From the IMG/VR virus record IMGVR_UViG_3300032308_002578, positions 1 through 64,000 of that record: DNA of 64,000 nucleotides; one strand, written 5' to 3'. Below the pieces are notes generated by a model. The model was given only the letters and a program-made list of their open reading frames with translations. It was not told the origin of the DNA and ran no database searches. This stretch comes from a virus. The position numbers were made by a program, and so were the translations under genes. Numbering within the stretch: the first letter of the stretch is position 1; every line of letters starts with the position of its first letter. This document shows positions 7,773 to 64,000 of this stretch, in pieces.

Positions 7773-9200
7773 ATGGCCGTAACCTTACGGCAATTGCAGC
7801 GGTGGCTGCACGCGTCACGGCAGAACAGCCGCGACGCGTTCGGCTACGAAGACGCCACCGAAGTTGGCCAGTTCGCCGGCTGGCTGCGGGGTGACAAAGT
7901 CGCGTCAGCGATGGTGCGTAACGGCACCATCGTTACAACGTGCACGTGTTCGCGGTGTATCGACAGCGCACCGCTTGTCGACGCGCGGGTTGGTAACCTC
8001 GTCGATTCATTGGCGAAAAAACACGGCGCAAACACCACGCTGGAGGCCCTCATGCGTCAGTCTCCGCCTGAAGGGTTTGAAAACCCGGACGGCGAGAGCA
8101 ATGATGATGAGGACGAGGGCGAGGACGAAAGCGACGGTCAGTCCGGACAGGGCGATGGCGAAGACGCTGATAACGAGTCCGACAACGAAAATGAGTCAAA
8201 TGATGGGTCGGAGTCTGAGAGCCAGAGCCAGCCGCAGCCGGGCCAAGCGAAAGGGCAGGAATCCCCGCAGCAGGCCAAAAAGCGGCAAGAGCAGGCAGCG
8301 CTGCAGGAAACCAAACAGAAGTTGCAGGACCTTCAACAGCAGATGAAGGACCGGCCGCATTCTTCTGTCGTACGGCAGCAAATCAAACGGACCAAGCGGG
8401 CGCTCAAAGAAGCGCGCCGCGCGGCGTCGTTTGGACGGGGTGACGGCCCGTCGCTCGAAGCCCGTAAGCAGATTGCCGGTGCCCACGGCAGGCTGCAAAA
8501 AGTTTCGCCCGCACTCCGGGCGCAAATGGCGGCCCTGATTAACCTGCTGGTTGGTCAGGGCAAAGCGGCCGGCGGCCAGATGGGGCCAATCCCCGTTCTG
8601 AGCCCGAGGAAGTTGGTTACGCGGATGCTTGTCCAGCGTCCGCTCGCCAACGCCCTCAAAGAAGACGTCGTGACTGGCCGCCCAGTCACGTTATTCTTGC
8701 CGGACGTTTCGCCGTCCTGTGAACGCCAAGCACAGGCGGCCTGCGACGTAGCCAACGCCGCAGGGTATTCCGGTGTGGCCGGTTCTGACGTACTGGTCTT
8801 CCCGCACAGCAACGGCTTCATCGACGAGACCGATGACGCCTACGTGCCGTGGTTTAACGGGAAAGTCCACACGACAGATCGGGCCGCCATAACCCGCCTC
8901 TTTAATGAGGTGGTAACCGGAAAGGGCAAGTGGCGTGTAAGGGCCGTCGTGATTATCGGCGATCACGACGGCGTGGACCTCTACCGACAACTCGCGGCAC
9001 TCCCGCGAATTGCTCGGATGATCTGGCTCCACAACGAGCAGAGGGATTACTCCAAACGCACGTTGTCAATGGCCGAAGGCGCCGACCGCAGGCTTGACGG
9101 CTGGCTCCCGGAAAGTTTGCAGAAGGTCTCGATGGTGTATGGGTGCGTAACCCAACCCCATATGGTGCAGGGTCTGAAAATGGCTCTGCAGGATCAATAG
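7773..9200 (+). CDS. vWA (MIDAS) domain protein with acidic linker, partner of the AAA+ ATPase
   Basis: SD AAGGAG before ATG 7773; DxSxS motif (LFLPDVSPS) and later VIIGD; D/E/Q/S-rich linker; MoxR-vWA pairing is well known. Confidence 0.75.
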   Translation: MAVTLRQLQRWLHASRQNSRDAFGYEDATEVGQFAGWLRGDKVASAMVRNGTIVTTCTCSRCIDSAPLVDARVGNLVDSLAKKHGANTTLEALMRQSPPEGFENPDGESNDDEDEGEDESDGQSGQGDGEDADNESDNENESNDGSESESQSQPQPGQAKGQESPQQAKKRQEQAALQETKQKLQDLQQQMKDRPHSSVVRQQIKRTKRALKEARRAASFGRGDGPSLEARKQIAGAHGRLQKVSPALRAQMAALINLLVGQGKAAGGQMGPIPVLSPRKLVTRMLVQRPLANALKEDVVTGRPVTLFLPDVSPSCERQAQAACDVANAAGYSGVAGSDVLVFPHSNGFIDETDDAYVPWFNGKVHTTDRAAITRLFNEVVTGKGKWRVRAVVIIGDHDGVDLYRQLAALPRIARMIWLHNEQRDYSKRTLSMAEGADRRLDGWLPESLQKVSMVYGCVTQPHMVQGLKMALQDQ

Positions 9201-47890: not shown

Positions 47891-47999
47891 CCGCACCTGC
47901 CACGCGTAGGTTGCGATCTTCCGCCGCCCTGCGCTGACTGAACGGCTGCGTTCCACGCGGCCACCGGGCTCCACGCCCTAGGTCAGCGCGGGGCGGCGG
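47891..47999 (+). other. GC-rich branched RNA structure at the end of the structural operon
   Basis: 19-bp stem 47921-39/47981-99 enclosing two hairpins; CCACGC occurs three times. Confidence 0.55.
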
Positions 48000-48730: not shown

Positions 48731-49159
48731 ATGGCAGACCCAAATGACGACTCGGCGGCGTTCGGTTGGTCGCTCGGGAAGCTGCGCTACCCGGGCGAGC
48801 CAGACCCAAACGACCCCGGAACTAATTGGCCCGGTTCGCATGTCTTCAGTGTGCCGACGCCGTTGGAAGTCCGACAGGTTTACGGGCACAACATCGAGTT
48901 TGTCTGCCCGGCTTTCGTGCAGTTGATGCTCGACGCTGAGCCGGAGATCCGCAAAGGCGCCGAGCGGGTTCGCGCCGCGGGCTACACGCCCGAGGCGCTC
49001 AATAAATACCGCCGGGTCGTGTTGACTGTATTTAACGAAAAAATTCTGCCGCAGATGGTTAAACGGTTCGAAGAAGTTTCTGGGCTGGTGGCTGAATTTT
49101 ACGCCGCCCGCCTTGCCCACATTGACGCTTTTGGAATTGAGGACGAAGAAGAACAATGA
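48731..49159 (+). CDS. hypothetical protein
   Basis: Coherent ORF overlapping the next gene by ATGA; start uncertain (48710 or 48731). Confidence 0.6.
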   Translation: MADPNDDSAAFGWSLGKLRYPGEPDPNDPGTNWPGSHVFSVPTPLEVRQVYGHNIEFVCPAFVQLMLDAEPEIRKGAERVRAAGYTPEALNKYRRVVLTVFNEKILPQMVKRFEEVSGLVAEFYAARLAHIDAFGIEDEEEQ

Positions 49160-51645: not shown

Positions 51646-52009
51646 CATGCAAATCGAAGAGGTGCAGCAGTACCGGTGGTCTAGTTATGGCCCGTACGCG
51701 TTTTTTGTGGACATCGTTATGCCGCTTGAAATTGGTTCGGCGCAGATGATCGTGGACCTCGCCCACAACCGGATCTGCGAAATGACCGTCTGCGACTACA
51801 CCCAACCCAAAAACAAGGAGGCGTACCTGTGGCGTAATCCACTGTTTCGCAAGGCCCACGCCGCCGAAGCCCGGCAGCGCGGCTACACGAAGAAACAGAT
51901 GTCGTACGCGTGGGACAACACACCGTGGGTCAACGTGCCGCCGGCGCAGATATTCAAACGGCTGCGGGAAATGGTAGCCCGGGCAAAAAAGAAAAACCCG
52001 CCGAAGTGA
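51557..52009 (+). CDS. hypothetical protein
   Basis: 150 aa ORF; start uncertain. Confidence 0.6.
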   Translation: MPVKAKTKVKAKPKRRARLPSPQDFIAAGDMQIEEVQQYRWSSYGPYAFFVDIVMPLEIGSAQMIVDLAHNRICEMTVCDYTQPKNKEAYLWRNPLFRKAHAAEARQRGYTKKQMSYAWDNTPWVNVPPAQIFKRLREMVARAKKKNPPK

Positions 52010-52058
52010 GCATCGTTGAGAGGCCCGGCGGGTTTGCTGCGCGCAACTAATTAACGTG

Positions 52059-55870: not shown

Positions 55871-56197
55871 ATGAAGCGTCGTCGAAACCGGTATAACTCA
55901 GACCGCCAGCCGTTCAATCAAAACGATGATCTCGACGACGATTTCATCGAAGAGGAATGGCAATTTGTCGACGACGAGGATGACGACGACGAGGACGACT
56001 TTGATTTCGACAGCGGCCATAAAACCGACTGGTACATCCCCGACGACAACGACGAAGATGAAGACGACGAAGACTACGAGGACGAAGATTACGAAAACGA
56101 AGACGACGACGCTGACGACGCCGCGTTTAACTGGGACGATGACGACGATGAGGACGACGACCCAGCGTACGAGGACAATTTCAACATAGACGAATAG
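55871..56197 (+). CDS. extremely acidic small protein
   Basis: Basic MKRRRNR N-terminus followed by a mostly D/E tract with spaced aromatic residues. Confidence 0.7.
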   Translation: MKRRRNRYNSDRQPFNQNDDLDDDFIEEEWQFVDDEDDDDEDDFDFDSGHKTDWYIPDDNDEDEDDEDYEDEDYENEDDDADDAAFNWDDDDDEDDDPAYEDNFNIDE

Positions 56198-56202
56198 GTG
56201 TC

Positions 56203-56682
56203 ATGCAAACATTTCTGCCGCTACCGAGATTTAAACATTCGGCGGCAGTTCTTGATAACAAACGACTCGGCAAACAACGGGTCGAATGCAAACAGATCTT
56301 GTTGTGTTTGGGTGTGCCAATTGGCGACCATACGCCAACGCCCGGCGGTTCGAAGTGGCGCAATCACCCAGCCGTGCGCATGTGGGCTGGCCATGAGATT
56401 GCCCTCGCGGCATACTCCATCGTGGTTTGCCGAGAATGGCGCCGGCGTGGCTTTCGCGACACGCTGCTCGCGCAGTTCATGGCCTGCTACGGCGTGCTGC
56501 GGCCGACAGTAACGCGCGTGGACTATCCGCCATGGTTTGGCGACTATGACTTGCACGCCAGCCACCGCAGCAATTTGTTACGCAAGGACTATCGCTTTTA
56601 TTCGCAGTTTGGATGGATGGAGCCCATCGACCTACCGTACATTTGGCCCGTGGAGAAAGAACATGCAGGCAGTGCTCATTGA
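56203..56682 (+). CDS. pyrimidine-dimer DNA glycosylase-like protein (MSMEG_6728/DenV-like)
   Basis: MQTFLP...LDNKRLGKQRVECKQIL...WRNHPAVRMW...SHRSNLLRKD signature. Confidence 0.85.
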   Translation: MQTFLPLPRFKHSAAVLDNKRLGKQRVECKQILLCLGVPIGDHTPTPGGSKWRNHPAVRMWAGHEIALAAYSIVVCREWRRRGFRDTLLAQFMACYGVLRPTVTRVDYPPWFGDYDLHASHRSNLLRKDYRFYSQFGWMEPIDLPYIWPVEKEHAGSAH

Positions 56683-57010
56683 CCCGTACAAAGAAGAAGT
56701 CACAAACGTCGAGTACAACGGCGACTATAAGCAGATCTATGACCACATTAAGGCTGACTGTTTTACGCTGGTGCGGCTACACGACAACGACGACGTATTC
56801 GTGGACGATGAGGGTCTGCTCAAAGTCACCAAGGACACGAAATTTTTCATGCTCAAGGACTACCCACAGCCGCTCGCGGGCTACGGGTTGATTCTCGGCA
56901 ACGACGACGAGGGCGAATCGGTAGCCGTGCACCACACTGCCGAATTCTACCGGCCCAAGGTACAATTCCTCGACGCGCAGATGGTGCGGGTGTTTGGTTA
57001 CTTTAAGTAA
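56663..57010 (+). CDS. DUF3846-like hypothetical protein
   Basis: SD GGAG; LIDP...FVDDEGLL...PLAG.GLILG.D.EGES pattern. Confidence 0.7.
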   Translation: MQAVLIDPYKEEVTNVEYNGDYKQIYDHIKADCFTLVRLHDNDDVFVDDEGLLKVTKDTKFFMLKDYPQPLAGYGLILGNDDEGESVAVHHTAEFYRPKVQFLDAQMVRVFGYFK

Positions 57011-57080: not shown

Positions 57081-57151
57081 GCCCCCATAGCATAATGATA
57101 ATGCGGCTGATTTGTAATCAGCGGATGAAGGTTTGATTCCTTCTGGGGGCT
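57081..57151 (+). tRNA. tRNA-Thr (UGU), CCA not encoded
   Basis: Acceptor GCCCCCA/TGGGGGC, D stem GCAT/ATGC, anticodon arm GCTGA-TTTGTAA-TCAGC, T arm GAAGG-TTTGATT-CCTTC. Confidence 0.85.
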
Positions 57152-57668: not shown

Positions 57669-57699
57669 AAACCCGTGGCATGATTGCCGCGGGTTTTTT
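57669..57699 (+). terminator. intrinsic terminator upstream of the RAMP locus
   Basis: AAACCCGTGGCA-TGAT-TGCCGCGGGTTT followed by TTT. Confidence 0.8.
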
Positions 57700-57759
57700 A
57701 TTTACACAATTAGTTTGCGTATGTGAGTGTTTTTAACAATAACTAACAAAGGAAAAGAC

Positions 57760-58518
57760 ATGGCAACCATGCTCAAGGGTTCGAAGAAGACGCAAGCCAA
57801 GGCCAAGACGACAAAGACTGCCGCCAAAGAGCACCTCGGCCCCGATGACGATAAGGGCGATTTGGCAATTGCTGATCGCGTGGGCGTGACGATCACAGCG
57901 CCCAACTTCAAGACCGTGGAGATCACAATCCGCGGCACGGCGCCGTACGTGCAGTTGGCGTTCGGCAAGAAGGCGCGCGAAATGATGCGCGAGAAGCAGG
58001 CTGCCGGCTCGACCGCCGCCAAGGGCAAGAAGCGCGAAGCCAAGGACTTCGATGCGAACTTCAAGGAAGCCCAGCACGTCTCAACCAAGGGCTGGTGTGG
58101 CATCCCAGCCAGCGCCCTTCGTAACGCGCTGGTTGACTCCTGCGTGGTCGTGGGCTATCACAAGACCAAGGCGAAGAAGGCTATTTTCGTCGAGGCCGAC
58201 GGTTTCGACGCTGTCGAAGGCACGCCGCTCATCCGGTTGTACAATGACGGCAAGGGTAAGTTGGTAGACGCCAAGCCGAAGCACGTCGAGCACACCGTTC
58301 GCAACGCGACCGGCGTTGCCGATATCCGTGTTCGAGCGATGTTTGAGCAGTGGCAGGCCAAGGTCCGCGTGCGTTTTGATGCCGACATGTTCACGCCGGC
58401 CGACATTGCCAATCTCATGCTGCGCGCTGGTATGCAAGTCGGAATCGGCGAAGGCCGCGCAGATTCGCCCAATTCGTGCGGTATGGGCTGGGGTCATTTC
58501 GAGTGCGTGAAGGGTTAA
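57760..58518 (+). CDS. stand-alone Cas7/RAMP-like RNA-binding protein (Vipr-like)
   Basis: First strand VEITIRGTAPY, GIPASALRNAL helix motif and C-terminal glycine-rich loop GIGEGR...GMGWGHF are RAMP hallmarks; ATG 57760 after AAAGGA. Confidence 0.75.
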   Translation: MATMLKGSKKTQAKAKTTKTAAKEHLGPDDDKGDLAIADRVGVTITAPNFKTVEITIRGTAPYVQLAFGKKAREMMREKQAAGSTAAKGKKREAKDFDANFKEAQHVSTKGWCGIPASALRNALVDSCVVVGYHKTKAKKAIFVEADGFDAVEGTPLIRLYNDGKGKLVDAKPKHVEHTVRNATGVADIRVRAMFEQWQAKVRVRFDADMFTPADIANLMLRAGMQVGIGEGRADSPNSCGMGWGHFECVKG

Positions 58519-58537
58519 TTTAACAAGGAGAAATGTT

Positions 58538-59017
58538 ATGGGGCGTAAACGGCAAATGTCTTCCATCAAGGAAGAACTGACGCAGATTTTTCAAAAGCAC
58601 AACGGCAATCTTCCGCCCGAAGCCGTTGTCGAATTTGCGCGCAATAAAAACACCGCGTTGCACGCAGAGTTTGAGTGGGATGATACAGAAGCGGCGCATC
58701 AGTTTCGGCTAGTGCAGGCACGAAATATCATCCGACTGAACATAGACATCGTCGAAACGCCCAACGGCAATGTTCGCGTTCCCGTGTATGTGTCGCTTGT
58801 TTCAGACCGACGCAGCGGCCTCGGCTACCGGGCGCTCACAGACGTCATGAGCGACGCCGACATGCGTGCTCAGTTATTGCAACAGGCGATCGACGAGTTG
58901 CAGCGAGTTCGGCGCAAGTATGAATCGCTGCGCGAATTGGCGCCTGTGTTCTCGGCTTTAGATCGCGTCGCCCGCAACGCCAGCAGGCGGCCAACACGTC
59001 GCGCCGCTCGGGCTTAA
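58538..59017 (+). CDS. partner protein between the RAMP gene and the array
   Basis: SD AAGGAG; LPPEAVVEFARNKNTALHAEFEWDDTEAAHQFRLVQARNIIR, helical and Arg-rich C-terminus. Confidence 0.8.
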   Translation: MGRKRQMSSIKEELTQIFQKHNGNLPPEAVVEFARNKNTALHAEFEWDDTEAAHQFRLVQARNIIRLNIDIVETPNGNVRVPVYVSLVSDRRSGLGYRALTDVMSDADMRAQLLQQAIDELQRVRRKYESLRELAPVFSALDRVARNASRRPTRRAARA

Positions 59018-59022
59018 ATATT

Positions 59023-59630
59023 TAGACACGGCAGGCTTGGCAGGGCAACGCTAGGCTCGGCTACGCACGGCGCGGATCGGCAGGCGTGGAATGACGCTGC
59101 TCGGTTCGGCATGCCTAGGCATGGGTCGTTTTGGCTTGGCAGGTATGGCACGGCGAGGCGGGGCGACGAGCGGTGAGGTGTGGATAGCCAAGACTTGGTT
59201 CGGATCGGCAGGCTGGGTAAGGCACGGCGTGGACGCGCGAGCAGCGACATGGCGAGGCAGGCAGAGCAAGGCACGGCATGCTTTGGTGAGGATCGGTGTC
59301 GCTTAGACATGGCAGGCACGGACAGGCAAGGCGCGCTTTGGTAGGGTTTGGCTCGGCAAGGCAGGCTAGGCACGGCTCGTCTCGACGCGGCCAGATAGGC
59401 TCGGCAGGCGAGGTATGGCAAGGCCGGGAGCGCCCCGGCCGGGATAGACATGGCAGGAATGGCATGGCTGGGTTCGGCACGGCGCGGTACGGATGGGCTT
59501 TAGACATGGCAGGCGTGGACAGGCTAGGCGGGGAATGCCGGCGCGCGCAGACGCATAGACACGGCAGGCAGGGTTAGGCAGGGCGAGGAGAGGCCGGGAG
59601 TGGCTCGGCAAATCACGGCAGGCTCGGAAT
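59023..59630 (+). ncRNA. GGN-NN pentamer array of 11 units delimited by GGCA; putative guide-RNA array
   Basis: Manual parse: 79 of 107 pentamers start with GG and the last two bases vary; GGCA punctuation at 59030, 59079, 59138, 59207, 59256, 59311, 59360, 59403, 59452, 59508, 59563, 59617. Confidence 0.85.
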
Positions 59631-59640
59631 TACATAAATT

Positions 59641-59679
59641 AAACAGGGGGCGGTTATTAACGTAGCCGCCCCCTGTTTT
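59641..59679 (+). terminator. intrinsic terminator closing the array
   Basis: AAACAGGGGGCGGTTA / TAGCCGCCCCCTGTTT then T. Confidence 0.85.
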
Positions 59680-59690
59680 ACAATCACAGT

Positions 59691-59936
59691 ATGAAAAGAT
59701 ACCACGCTGAAAAGCACATCATCGACAGTCGCGTAAAAAAGTATAAGCAGATCGCAGGCTGGCTTGACCCGGCGGATACGCGGTTCCTGCCCGATGCGGG
59801 CCGTTTCCGCAAATCTATCCGCTGCTCAGGCTGCGGCCGGGCGCGGTGCCAATTGTGCCACCCGGAGAAGTTTCCGCGGCGTATTCCAACAATTAAAGAA
59901 CAACAGGCGCAGTATGACTGGCGCGATTACGAATAA
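59691..59936 (+). CDS. small Cys/His-containing hypothetical protein
   Basis: CSGC..ARCQLCHP motif. Confidence 0.65.
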   Translation: MKRYHAEKHIIDSRVKKYKQIAGWLDPADTRFLPDAGRFRKSIRCSGCGRARCQLCHPEKFPRRIPTIKEQQAQYDWRDYE

Positions 59937-59974
59937 ACCAGTCACGTTTTAACAACTAACTTTTTGGAGAATTC

Positions 59975-60286
59975 ATGCCTAACTTCGTAAACAACATCGT
60001 CCAAGCCTCGGGCCGGCTCGCCGATGCCGTAATGTCTGAGATGGCGTACGAGGACAACCGGCACAACGTCAAGATGCAGGTGATCGAGCGACTTATGGCC
60101 GGCGAGAACAAGTTGACCGGCAAGCCCCATTCGTTCAGTTCGGCCGAGACCGCGGCGGCCTCTGACCCGGCCTACACCGATTATCTTGAGCAGTTGCGCA
60201 ACGCCACCCGCGAGCGTATTCTCGCCAAGGGCGTCTATGACGCAGCCGTGGCTGCCGCCCGGCTGCAGGAGGTGGTCAGTGACTGA
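59975..60286 (+). CDS. hypothetical protein
   Basis: SD GGAG; 103 aa, helical. Confidence 0.7.
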   Translation: MPNFVNNIVQASGRLADAVMSEMAYEDNRHNVKMQVIERLMAGENKLTGKPHSFSSAETAAASDPAYTDYLEQLRNATRERILAKGVYDAAVAAARLQEVVSD

Positions 60287-61059: not shown

Positions 61060-61283
61060 TGGCGTTTCATGGAAAAGCCGGTGACCGCGTGCAGATGGTT
61101 TTCATGCCTAACGACCCCGAGCCTATTCCGGTTGGCACGACCGGCACCGTCGTTGGCGTTAACGATATGCCGTGGGGCCAAGATCGCATGACGCAGGTCA
61201 TGGTCAAATGGGATAACGGCCGCAACCTGTCGTGCATCTGCCCGCCAGACCATCTGGAAATCATTCCAGCCACGGCTGATTAG
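61056..61283 (+). CDS. DUF4314-like protein
   Basis: GDRV.M..M.NDP.PIPVGT.GTV..V...Q..VKWDNG..L pattern; SD GGAGG. Confidence 0.75.
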   Translation: MMAFHGKAGDRVQMVFMPNDPEPIPVGTTGTVVGVNDMPWGQDRMTQVMVKWDNGRNLSCICPPDHLEIIPATAD

Positions 61284-64000
61284 TATTGGAAGTAGCCGCT
61301 GCCAATAGCGTCGTCGGCCCAGTCTTCGCCCGGTGTCTGGGCGGCAACGGCCCGTTCCGTTACGCGGCCAATGCCGGCTAACTGCGCGAAGTTGGGCCAC
61401 GCGTCGTTAATGTGCCACGCGGCGGCACAGCCAATATTGACAGCCTGCGCGAAGTCATCGCTGAGCAGCGTATTTCGCGTGATTGTATAAATGTCGCCGC
61501 CCATACGAGACTCGGCTTTGTTTTCCACCAGCGCCAAGAAGTCGGCGATAAGTCCGGGCGAGTCTTGCGACGCCCAATCGTATTGGAAGAACCTGATCTG
61601 TTTTAACTTAATCGCCTGACAGGTGTAGAGCAACGACCGGGTCTTATCAAGACTGTAATGGGCCCGGTGATTAATCGGCGTCGGCGGCTTGTAAATCATC
61701 AAGTCCTGCGCGGCCGACCGGACAAGCCGCAGAGCCAGCACCCGGTCTAAATTAAAGCCAGCCTGCACCATGACTGTTTCGCGGACCGTGCCGGCACCGG
61801 TGTAATCGTGCGCGACAAAATCGCAATTAAACGTGTTCGACCACTTCATGCACTCAATGGCTTCGGCCAGATGGTCGCCGCCGATCAGCAGGCGTTTCGA
61901 CCAAATAACATCGATAGTGCCGTCCGGCCGAAAACCAAGTACGGCTACGACAGTAAACGAGATACCCTCTTCGCCACCGCCGCCCCAGTCGATGGCCAGA
62001 ATCCGATGTTTGTACTCCTGCAGGTGTTGGAAGCATTTTGGGTTAGGTTCTTTCTTGTTCTCCCAGTCGAGTAAACACGCCGCGCGCAGTTCTGTCTCGC
62101 TGATCAATTTCTGCCCGGCGTCAACAGACTCGCCCAAAACTTCGTTGTAGAACTGCGCCTGCGTCATGTTGCCGTAGCCTTCGCGCTTGAGCAGCAGCGT
62201 GTTCCATTTCTCGGGATCTGAGAAATGCAACGGCAGAATTAACTGCGGCACGTGATATCCGGCGAACTGCCAGCGGCGATCAGGGTGCCTGTGCACCCAA
62301 CGTCCGTGCCGCGGGCTGATAGGCTTGCGACATTTCGCGCAAATTGTGCCCGGATTCTTTTCACTAATGTGAATATTAAACGGGCCAATAATAGCGTCGA
62401 GGTCATGGTCGATAGATGGAATGTTCCAATACTTACAAGAGCGGCACGGGATAAACCATTCAGCCTGCGATGAACGTTTGTATAACCCCTCTAACGGGTT
62501 ATCTACGGATTTTGGCGTTCCTGTGAAATGGCTAATGGCATAGCGTGAATAACTCATCGTCTCTTGAATGATTGGAATATGATCCGGGTCCATGTCTTGA
62601 ATTTCGTCAAGCGCGATACGGTCAGCAGACACACCGCGGACACGATCTGCGTCGAGCAGCGCGAACGAGAACAGCATTAACGACTTGTTCTTAAAGCTGC
62701 GCTGCAATACAGAATTCTCAGTATCGCTCCCCGCCCACTGCGACTTGATGGGCGACTGATCAATGAATGGGCGCACGTAGTTGTTCGAGAATCTGCGGAT
62801 CTGCTCGTACAACGGCGTAACGTACAGAGTCTTGAAAAACGGAATCGAGTTCGCCACCACGATGCCGTGCGCCGCGAGCGAGGTTGAATTGTGATTTACA
62901 ATACCGTCGACGACGTAATTGTGCTCGCCGCTGACTTCGATGTCCCAGCACGGCAGCACGCCCAGCGGCTCGATCTTTTCGATTTTGTCCCAAATAATAT
63001 CCGGACTTGCGAGCCGCTCTAGTTCTGAAAGTTTTGGATGTTCGGGACAATGTTCTCGAAAATGCTCAATGTACTTTTTGAGTTTGGCGCGGGTCAACGC
63101 GTGCTTGGGTTTTAGACGCAGACCGCCGCTCAAAAGAGATTTGCCGTTTTGCGCCCAGCGAATACTCTCGGCAATCTCGCTGATTAATTCGCGAACTTCC
63201 AGCGGCACGGTGTCGCGGTTGTTGTTTTCAACCGCTTCAGGCAGCACTACAGGCGGTTTTCCCGGCACTTGGAATTCATCAAGAAAACGACGCCAGCCAT
63301 CTCTTGTTTCGACGTGCACGATGTACGCATCGTTGCAGTGTACGCGTGCGCCGTTTTTATCGCGGTAACCAGTTGGTCGGACTTTGATTGTGGCCGGAAT
63401 GCCGAACTTTAACAGCATCGCTTTGATATCAAACGCCAGATCTCGCGATATAGTGCAATATGTGATCGCTGGCGCCCGCTGCTTGCCGCTAGCGGGGCGG
63501 ATCATACCATCCGTTGCCCATAAGCGGCTCAAAAACAGCGCGGCGTCACCGCGCGACAGATCAAAAACCCAATCGGGCAGGCTTTTTTCTAACGCGTTTT
63601 TACCGTACAGCCTGTCTTCTTCCAGCCAGCCGCGAATCACACCGCCACGACTCTTTGAGATGTCGATACGTACGGCATTCGTTTTGACTTTGCTGACAAA
63701 CGTAGCGGGGCTACCCTGCACACGCGTGATTACCCCGTTCACCTCGTTTATCACTTCAGCGCTGTCTGTTGTAATATTAATTGCGTTAGTCACGCATCCG
63801 TCACCGATAAGATACGCCGTGATGATGATGCGATCACGATCCACGCGTCGATCGCCGAACGTGCCGCCTTTACGCACTGCGCAGACGCGGTCGCCAACCC
63901 GTAAGTTCGCACCGGTTGTCCAGCCGCTGACTTTGAGTAATGGATGCGTGTCGGCCAGTTCGATCACGGCACCCGTTCGCGTCGTAACTCGGTAGACGTG
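61280..64000 (-). CDS. terminase large subunit (GpA-like), 5'-truncated, intein-containing
   Basis: Extein begins STS (Walker A end), Walker B RIALDEIQD, TGTPK coupling motif, CxxC pairs, RNase H-like LAIDWGGG; frame open to the window end. Confidence 0.9.
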   Translation of the reverse strand, partial: HVYRVTTRTGAVIELADTHPLLKVSGWTTGANLRVGDRVCAVRKGGTFGDRRVDRDRIIITAYLIGDGCVTNAINITTDSAEVINEVNGVITRVQGSPATFVSKVKTNAVRIDISKSRGGVIRGWLEEDRLYGKNALEKSLPDWVFDLSRGDAALFLSRLWATDGMIRPASGKQRAPAITYCTISRDLAFDIKAMLLKFGIPATIKVRPTGYRDKNGARVHCNDAYIVHVETRDGWRRFLDEFQVPGKPPVVLPEAVENNNRDTVPLEVRELISEIAESIRWAQNGKSLLSGGLRLKPKHALTRAKLKKYIEHFREHCPEHPKLSELERLASPDIIWDKIEKIEPLGVLPCWDIEVSGEHNYVVDGIVNHNSTSLAAHGIVVANSIPFFKTLYVTPLYEQIRRFSNNYVRPFIDQSPIKSQWAGSDTENSVLQRSFKNKSLMLFSFALLDADRVRGVSADRIALDEIQDMDPDHIPIIQETMSYSRYAISHFTGTPKSVDNPLEGLYKRSSQAEWFIPCRSCKYWNIPSIDHDLDAIIGPFNIHISEKNPGTICAKCRKPISPRHGRWVHRHPDRRWQFAGYHVPQLILPLHFSDPEKWNTLLLKREGYGNMTQAQFYNEVLGESVDAGQKLISETELRAACLLDWENKKEPNPKCFQHLQEYKHRILAIDWGGGGEEGISFTVVAVLGFRPDGTIDVIWSKRLLIGGDHLAEAIECMKWSNTFNCDFVAHDYTGAGTVRETVMVQAGFNLDRVLALRLVRSAAQDLMIYKPPTPINHRAHYSLDKTRSLLYTCQAIKLKQIRFFQYDWASQDSPGLIADFLALVENKAESRMGGDIYTITRNTLLSDDFAQAVNIGCAAAWHINDAWPNFAQLAGIGRVTERAVAAQTPGEDWADDAIGSGYFQY
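62888..64000 (-). mobile_element. intein with LAGLIDADG homing endonuclease
   Basis: Block B VYRVTTRTGAVIELADTHPLL, LAGLIDADG motifs AYLIGDG and SRLWATDG, C-terminal WDIEVSGEHNYVVDGIVNHN followed by Ser. Confidence 0.92.

Follow-up and report, generated by a model that had tools for sequence, protein, structure and literature searches.

A probable VIPR module with guides packed head to tail in an uncultured freshwater jumbo phage

The stretch of 64,000 nt analysed here (hereafter the window) comprises positions 1 to 64,000 of the IMG/VR virus record IMGVR_UViG_3300032308_002578, and it carries at 57760-59679 a compact module that is very probably a VIPR (Viral Interference Programmable Repeat) system, borne as accessory cargo by a jumbo phage. 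VIPR is, according to the available portions of the 2026 preprints that describe it, a CRISPR-related RNA-guided DNA silencer (10.64898/2026.04.26.720920, 10.64898/2026.04.26.720927), and another preprint gives a figure of 99 VIPR-like clusters with a 5-nt period (10.64898/2026.10.21.760802). The module consists of two plus-strand genes, followed by about 600 nt without a credible open reading frame (ORF), and is placed between two terminators. The first gene encodes a 252-aa protein that is, on sequence comparison, a homolog of the protein Vipr, the second encodes a 159-aa partner, and the non-coding DNA behind them is built from GGY-NN pentamers. The sequence-only reading had named VIPR as a match in need of checking, and this suggestion is borne out by the homology to the Vipr protein of Escherichia phage SUSP1, the Cas7-like fold, a same-strand GGY/NN array in 79/80 relatives, the two-gene layout of the phage locus, and the lack of a Cas1, Pfam RAMP or CRISPR-repeat match in the record. 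Direct observations are available for the relation to Vipr, for the fold and the grammar of the array, and for the association of the three parts across relatives.

The vipr gene (57760-58518, +) was identified as an ORF and by its family profile and an AlphaFold2 model, and its translation holds the two motifs, GIPASALRNAL and GIGEGR...GMGWGHF, that had been named as RAMP hallmarks. The protein has no match in Pfam, NCBIfam or PADLOC, and in PHROGs it matches phrog_4652 only, a family of unknown function. The family is very large and spans many phyla: of 4719 candidates, 4098 proteins reached E <= 1e-3, and clustering at 50% identity left 2001 representatives. A 63-member family profile matched the PDB chain 36pp_D, 'SUSP1 Vipr protein', with E 4.3e-7, the sole other row being CopZ with E 0.69, and in the SUSP1 genome the same profile found a single place (E 2.6e-8) within AVU07_agp039, a region that adjoins intergenic gaps of 450-530 nt. 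When the window family was aligned with SUSP1 Vipr by hhalign, a probability of 95.5% and an E-value of 1.6e-8 were obtained over 55 columns, and the alignment takes in the final strands together with the helix and the glycine loop. In this alignment, R138, D177 and R179 of SUSP1 Vipr are paired with R192 of the window protein, which is at least 90% conserved, and with E231 and R233, which are both invariant. The available part of the structural preprint reports that R138, D177, W178 and R179 hold the guanine and the pyrimidine of GGY, that W178 stacks on G2, and that the exchanges R138A and D177A abolish silencing (10.64898/2026.04.26.720927). The glycine loop of the window protein is formed by G228-R233 plus GMGWG, and the glycine-rich stretch G228-G245 is invariant in the family.

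The AlphaFold2 model of the 252-aa protein has a predicted local distance difference test score (pLDDT) of 88.5 and a predicted template modelling score of 0.81, and it is confident except for an N-terminal tail. This tail (residues 1-45, encoded at 57760-57894) is basic, rich in Lys and Ala, disordered, and modelled with low confidence. Among the listed sequence matches, those with at least 75% identity mostly span residues 1-45, and most of the remoter ones align from about residue 43 on. A Foldseek comparison with the PDB gave 50 matches at E <= 1e-3, with 8z4j_J as the best (2.1e-5), and all listed rows were Cas7-family chains of CRISPR effectors (type VII, III-A Csm, III-B Cmr, III-D, and III-E Craspase). 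The structure comparison thus agrees with the earlier assignment of the protein to the RAMPs. The PDB copy used by Foldseek ends at 2026-04-08 and returned no Vipr entry. In BFVD, a viral 'Cas system-associated RAMP superfamily protein' was matched with 2.7e-6. A thumb is inferred solely from the beta-hairpin 156-181 of the model.

The 5-nt register that had been noticed in the roughly 600 nt of non-coding DNA lies far beyond chance. In 59018-59640, the identity at lag 5 is 0.469, versus 0.289 +/- 0.017 in 2000 mononucleotide shuffles, the largest of which reached 0.340 (z = 10.4), and further identity peaks are found at lags 10, 15 and 20. A Fourier scan for GG with period 5 over the whole 87,750-bp record gave one sustained signal, at 58981-59691, with a peak of 14.7 (record mean 2.4, standard deviation 1.5); the other hits were one lone window at 8341 (8.1) and two weak spots on the CC strand at 48761 and 53681 (<= 9.1). 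Dynamic programming parsed the array into 110 pentamers, of which 100 begin with G, 94 have G in second place, and 91 have C or T in third place, and the entropies of positions 4 and 5 (1.83 and 1.99 bits) show that these are nearly random. Strict GGY units account for 69/110 and GGN units for 85/110. The array is not reported by Tandem Repeats Finder (TRF), in our reading because the units are too unlike one another.

The array is subdivided by a second regularity. At twelve GGCA/GG sites (the slash marks the junction), the register slips by -1, and these slips cut the array into 11 units of 50, 60, 70, 50, 56, 50, 44, 50, 57, 56 and 55 nt plus a two-unit stub. Unit size is 6-14 pentamers, most commonly 10, with boundaries that are those of the sequence and not RNA ends. 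The same grammar was seen in 82 loci with 5785 pentamers, where 482 four-nt steps stand against 23 six-nt steps, GGCA/GG makes up 345/482 of the four-nt steps, and the spacing of the junctions peaks at 10-11 pentamers. In 354 junction contexts, regular GGC-NN pentamers flank GGCA/GG on both sides; a structured 3' tail after the repeat tract was found at none of the 354 junctions, and Rfam finds nothing in the array. The available part of the first VIPR preprint gives 9-16 repeats per vrRNA and mentions, in the legend of fig. S18, staggered arrays with a 1-nt overlap (10.64898/2026.04.26.720920). Judged by its sequence, the layout of the window array fits this "staggered" type in spacing and in the 1-nt overlap. 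A heptamer, TAGACAY, precedes 5/12 GGCA/GG junctions (59023-59029, 59304-59310, 59445-59451, 59501-59507, 59556-59562); it is also present in the two relatives L005 and L006 that are described below, and in this subclade AGACAY precedes a subset of the junctions.

All candidate vrRNAs lie on the plus strand. Five nucleotides past the stop codon of the partner gene, the array opens with a leader that resembles a junction (TAGACAC-GGCA, 59023-59033), and it is followed by the candidates v1 (59034-59083, 10 pentamers, 90% identical in L005), v2 (59083-59142, 12 pentamers, with a palindrome at 59110-59123), and v3 (59142-59211, 14 pentamers), whose 3' pentamers differ in L005 and in sequencing run X5. 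Candidate v4 (59211-59260, 10 pentamers) is identical in L005, and its NN string corresponds to [C/W][K/N]TVR[D/E]A[I/M][D/E]. The next ones are v5 (59260-59315, 56 nt, ending in AGACAT-GGCAG), v6 (59315-59364, 10 pentamers, absent from L005), v7 (59364-59407, 44 nt, with an internal 4-nt unit), and v8 (59407-59456, 10 pentamers), which contains a 7-bp GC hairpin at 59422-59440. Candidate v9 (59456-59512) consists of 9 clean GGN units plus TAGACAT-GGCAG, is not found in L005, and corresponds in antisense to [K/N][H/Q]VAV[D/E][H/Q][I/M][I/M]. The array closes with v10 (59512-59567, 56 nt) and v11 (59567-59621, 11 pentamers), and then the two-unit stub at 59621-59630.

The three parts of the module recur jointly in related loci. 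As relatives we used the best 80 of 516 IMG/VR stretches that encode a relative of the 252-aa protein, and an array was sought from -1.5 to +2.5 kb of the gene by a GG period-5 score for each strand. A same-strand array was present in 79/80 loci, and in 76/80 at the stricter score of 9, versus an opposite-strand array in 14/80 at score 7 and 1/80 at score 9; the homologs thus share the 5-nt periodicity. The sole exception, L049, is a fetched locus that ends 49 nt past the partner. In a single locus of the 80, L058 (IMGVR_UViG_3300047160_014545), both strands carry strong period-5 arrays, with scores of 12.4 and 10.0 on the CC strand. Arrays also adjoin the homologs in Cyanophage Cy-LDV1, Mycobacterium phage Quico and Gordonia phage Ecliptus. 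The closest relative, L005, is a complete genome of 198,312 bp with terminal repeats whose Vipr is 84% identical; it has v1-v5, v7, v8 and v11 in common with the window (8/11 units), and the remainder differ. L006 (Vipr 81% identical) has other guides, and no shared unit was seen. On a contig from a 2015 freshwater metagenome (run X5), 163 nt of the array (59337-59501, parts of v6 to v9) are swapped for 85 other letters, with the flanks kept.

The partner is the third recurrent component. This vap-like accessory gene (58538-59017, +), which had been proposed as a 159-aa partner and is indeed found as an ORF of this length, contains an FEWDD motif, and it was recognized by its neighbor homologies: its homologs adjoin the Vipr homologs of Cyanophage Cy-LDV1 (E 2e-17), Mycobacterium phage Quico (E 2e-15) and Gordonia phage Ecliptus (E 3e-21), and single-sequence tblastn detected it in 71/80 related viral loci. 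The only family row is PHROG 15946, function unknown, and scans of Pfam, NCBIfam and PADLOC gave no nuclease or helicase family match. The partner is modelled (pLDDT 92) as a helical protein that has a beta-hairpin and, at its C terminus, two long helices. Foldseek gave nothing at E <= 1e-3, and the weak top rows are winged-helix repressors (BlaI/MecI/FoxP3, E 0.6-4), which we take as a hint only. A relation to vap1 of SUSP1, which according to the available part of the preprint enhances protection in that system, was not found (BLASTP E 0.33, hhalign probability 0.3%).

From these observations and from the homologous system, a mode of action can be proposed, in which we infer that the array is transcribed and processed, that its RNA is bound, that the 1-nt-skip rule holds in this clade, and what is targeted. 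The vipr gene, the vap-like gene and the array would probably be transcribed as one RNA that ends at the terminator 59641-59679, and cutting or phasing of the array RNA would yield about 11 vrRNAs with lengths near 50-70 nt. Breaks would fall at the GGCA/G junctions, such that neighboring guides share a single G, which ends one and opens the other. One Vipr protomer might then bind each pentamer, with GGY sequestered and the two variable bases displayed. The sequence-only reading had already proposed one subunit per pentamer, and this coincides with what the available part of the cryogenic electron microscopy preprint reports for SUSP1 Vipr, a correspondence that would extend to the window locus by homology. 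The filament may pair with double-stranded DNA by reading NN-x-NN-x, skipping one base that is usually a codon wobble position, and a gapped R-loop would result. The bound filament could block transcription of a gene of a rival mobile element, or possibly of the host. As the module holds no nuclease domain, the expected output is silencing rather than cutting.

Targets were sought as in the published work, with a single wildcard in place of every GGY (NN-x-NN), and except where a mismatch tolerance is given the scans were exact-match scans, which are blind to targets with mismatches. When the 11 guides were compared with the 87,750-bp record itself, the best matches equaled those of shuffles; one match was slightly higher, 15/18 for v9 at 68365-68390, but it is out of phase with the 499-aa ORF that contains it and was set aside as chance. 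Among 89 fetched loci, mostly the VIPR loci of relatives, nothing rose above unit-shuffled guides, and apparent matches of v6 were discarded, as those loci had themselves been fetched by the v6 scan. Exact scans of IMG/VR gave 0 to 5 matches per guide, which is about the rough chance expectation. The 5 matches of v6 lie on AT-rich, mostly unrelated contigs, none of them extends beyond the guide into the unit that follows, 2 of the 5 are not in phase, and we rejected them; v3 (10 units), v11 and v1 had 0 exact matches each in IMG/VR. For v2, an exact metagenome scan gave 0 matches, and all 13 units of v3, with <= 3 mismatches, matched nothing in 5 records or in 401 Planctomycetota genomes.

Two guides gave matches that we regard, on their sequence, as leads only. 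Guide v4 has 2 matches in IMG/VR (a dihydrofolate reductase gene and a 684-aa ORF), and no other guide matches those loci. In metagenomes, v4 matched 37 loci, 8 of which (6 distinct genes) are C-5 cytosine methylases matched in phase. The six methylase genes (L155, L157, L161, L165, L176, L180), whose contigs have 34-59% GC, show an exact 18/18 match to v4; the matched stretch coincides with the WKTVR[D/E]AI[D/E]-DLP motif, and the six genes differ only at the skipped wobble bases. The same v4 peptide is carried by three DUF499-type ORFs. Against this lead, only 1 of 30 C-5 methylase loci of 61 Planctomycetota genomes reaches an 80% NN match to v4 (unit-shuffled guides: mean 0.05, largest 1); with <= 1 mismatch, v4 matched 0/151 Planctomycetota genomes, and no PF00145 gene was found in G000, G004, G005 or G001. 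Guide v9 has 1 exact match in IMG/VR (L154:6298-6323), antisense and in phase, which covers KQVAVDHII, with the catalytic DH of HNH, in a 129-aa HNH protein on a viral contig of 31% GC. One could imagine that a tail-less staggered array is measured out by the Vipr filament itself, with the GGCA/G slip as a stop-and-restart mark and without ribozyme or structured tail, and that some guides are aimed at conserved protein-coding motifs of gene families (v4 at C-5 DNA methylases, v9 antisense to the ..VDHII.. of HNH nucleases) rather than at one rival element. We consider this combined proposal rather unlikely. If it were true, restriction-modification and homing-endonuclease genes of competitors or of the host would be silenced despite synonymous drift.

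Several results weigh against the assignment to VIPR and have to be set beside the evidence for it. The similarity to SUSP1 Vipr is limited to the C-terminal ~55 residues, and W178 of SUSP1 is paired with an invariant glycine, G232, in the window family. Structural agreement with Cas7 chains is modest by TM-score (0.30-0.42, referred to the query, with a root-mean-square deviation of 7-14 A). The partner has no significant match in Pfam, NCBIfam, PADLOC, a PDB sequence search, Foldseek PDB or the ESM Atlas. In the array, 25/110 units are not GGN and palindromes occur within some units; a parsed unit is not necessarily a guide. When the window is compared with L005, substitutions number 3, 5, 8, 6 and 4 of ~65 each at pentamer positions 1 to 5, with no clear bias. 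None of the 17 listed sequencing runs that hold the locus is catalogued as RNA, and none of the target searches returned a convincing target. The assignment, finally, reaches VIPR as such and not one of its types I-VII.

The lack of a convincing target would also be expected of a decayed or decoy VIPR locus, whose array guides nothing or acts as a sponge for the Vipr of rival phages, and a redirection of Vipr by solo vrRNAs is described in the available part of a further preprint (10.64898/2026.10.15.759431). The units that are not GGN and the palindromes in several units would likewise suit decay. However, both genes are intact and the conserved residues are kept, 8/11 units are conserved with the complete relative L005, v4 even identically, internal degeneracy is usual according to the available part of the preprint, and the exact-match scans would have passed over mismatched targets; we therefore hold decay or decoy function to be very unlikely. 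As a second alternative, the array could act as DNA, in the form of phased GGC sites, similar to iterons or a centromere, that are bound by the partner or by the RAMP-like protein for replication, partition or packaging. The winged-helix DNA binders among the weak fold rows of the partner and the lack of RNA data among the listed runs are in line with this. Against it, the array is on the strand of the gene in 79/80 loci, versus 1/80 on the other strand at the stricter score, it is placed between the operon and its terminator, and its variable dinucleotides turn over between close relatives, whereas the frame is retained; moreover, the homologous SUSP1 Vipr is reported, in the available part of the preprint, to bind such RNAs, and a 5-bp step would put successive sites on different faces of B-DNA. 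A role of the array as DNA is therefore highly improbable. Scarcely credible is a stripped-down CRISPR-Cas derivative, namely a type III, IV or VII Cas7 orphan that reuses CRISPR RNAs (crRNAs) made elsewhere next to an unrelated simple sequence: the best fold matches among solved structures are indeed Cas7-family chains, but the 87.7-kb record has no Cas1, Pfam RAMP match or CRISPR repeat, the family matches SUSP1 Vipr and no Cas protein by sequence, and the array accompanies the gene in 79/80 relatives.

The boundaries of the VIPR module are well defined, and the earlier proposal of a self-contained unit between terminators holds. On the 5' side, an intrinsic-terminator-like hairpin with a T run (57669-57704, +; 12-pair stem with 7 GC pairs, tail TTTATTTACA) ends the upstream gene, the hairpin proper being at 57669-57696. 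On the 3' side, a terminator (59641-59679, +) has 16-nt arms at 59641-59656 and 59663-59678 that are 94% complementary, a 6-nt loop, and then T's. No sigma-70-like site was found upstream of vipr. The element TTTTAACAAY (+) occurs in only two copies in the window (57731-57740 and 59947-59956), each about 28 nt ahead of a start codon (of vipr and of an ORF at 59975), and two matches were also reached in 5/100 shuffles. The sequence-only reading had moreover stated that cas1, cas2, cas3, cas5, cas6 and cas10 genes and a CRISPR array were absent. This stands for Cas1 (PF01867) and for the Pfam RAMP family (PF03787), neither of which has a match anywhere in the 87,750-bp record, for CRISPR-DR or ribozyme families, none of which was found by Rfam, and for CRISPR-like repeats, none of which was found by TRF, while cas2, cas3, cas5, cas6 and cas10 were not searched individually.

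The source record has a CheckV completeness of 43%, and the carrier is a jumbo phage of ~200 kb from lake water. The locus is present on contigs from lake and freshwater metagenomes of several studies. The nearest matches in cellular genomes are metagenome-assembled genomes of lake Planctomycetota (70%, 62% and 58% identity), but as a host clue they suffer from the unreliable assignment of phage contigs to bins. The phage encodes a tRNA-Thr (anticodon tgt) at 57081-57151 (+), about 600 nt ahead of the module. The other upstream neighbors are a 108-aa ORF rich in Asp and Glu (55871-56197) and a pyrimidine-dimer DNA glycosylase (PF03013, 56203-56682) that is overlapped by a DUF3846 ORF (56537-57010). 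Rfam placed two RNA motifs above their gathering scores in the window, abiF at 51996-52032 (-; 45.8 bits) and DUF3800-VIII at 47923-47997 (+; 42.6 bits). A large terminase ORF of 895 aa lies at 61280-63967 (-) and may extend beyond the window; phage TerL matches begin only at residue 363, and the N-terminal part looks, by its sequence, like a candidate intein.

What the window adds is an intact and well-bounded VIPR module from an uncultured freshwater jumbo phage, and the published picture of VIPR is unchanged by it. The clade to which it belongs is very large, as seen from the 2001 cluster representatives, the 516 IMG/VR loci and the members in cultured mycobacteriophages, Gordonia phages and cyanophages. 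In this clade, successive guides adjoin head to tail and overlap by one base, and the accessory protein is unrelated to vap1. The homologs in cultured mycobacteriophages, Quico and its relatives, offer a practical route to the processing of staggered arrays.

Among the known systems that come close to the module are so far unannotated pairs in cultured phages, namely g34/g33 of Cyanophage Cy-LDV1, gp57/gp58 of Mycobacterium phage Quico, and gp19/gp20 of the Gordonia phages Ecliptus and ODay, which belong to the same two gene families and likewise carry same-strand GGY-NN arrays with GGCA/GG slips; besides Quico, 26 further Mycobacterium phage records hold the homolog pair. The proteins are 24-49% identical to those of the window and are all annotated as 'hypothetical protein', and the array precedes the gene in Quico, whereas in the other cultured phages it separates the two genes or follows them. 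With the Cas7 RAMPs of class 1 effectors (Csm3, Cmr4, type VII Cas7), the window protein shares an RRM core, a glycine-rich loop and a thumb-like hairpin, and presumably, by homology to SUSP1, the principle of one subunit per fixed step of the guide RNA. The step is 5 nt with 3 bases hidden in VIPR, whereas it is 6 nt with 1 base flipped in class 1 Cas7, and unlike class 1 effectors the window's record has neither Cas1, a Pfam RAMP match nor a CRISPR repeat, and its guides have no crRNA repeat handle.

The module resembles the type II VIPR of Escherichia phage SUSP1 (Vipr AVU07_agp039, PDB 36pp; vap1 AVU07_agp038) in its homologous Vipr, its GGY/NN repeats and its two-gene phage operon, and in part of the binding residues: R138 and R179 have identical counterparts, and Glu stands in place of D177 as a conservative exchange. 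The binding mode and the 1-nt-skip silencing of SUSP1 are presumed, by analogy, to be shared. On the other hand, the window guides lack both a conserved 3' tail and a pseudoknot and follow one another head to tail, instead of forming separate transcripts of ~100 nt as in SUSP1; the partner is unrelated to vap1, the equivalent of W178 is Gly, and the protein is extended at its N terminus by a basic tail of ~45 residues and has 8 residues inserted in the region of the glycine loop. Because of the missing 3' tail and the unrelated partner, the window locus is not the characterized type II. Comparable too are the staggered-array VIPR loci of the first preprint, which, in its available portion, are phage loci made up of a single Vipr RAMP, an accessory gene and an array of GGY/NN pentamers, with neither a CRISPR array nor cas genes, and the window module has the same make-up (10.64898/2026.04.26.720920). 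The small RNA sequencing given in that portion confirmed only the ribozyme and single-vrRNA layouts (10.64898/2026.04.26.720920). As in the staggered arrays described there, neighboring guides of the window overlap by one base, so that the end of one guide marks the start of the next.

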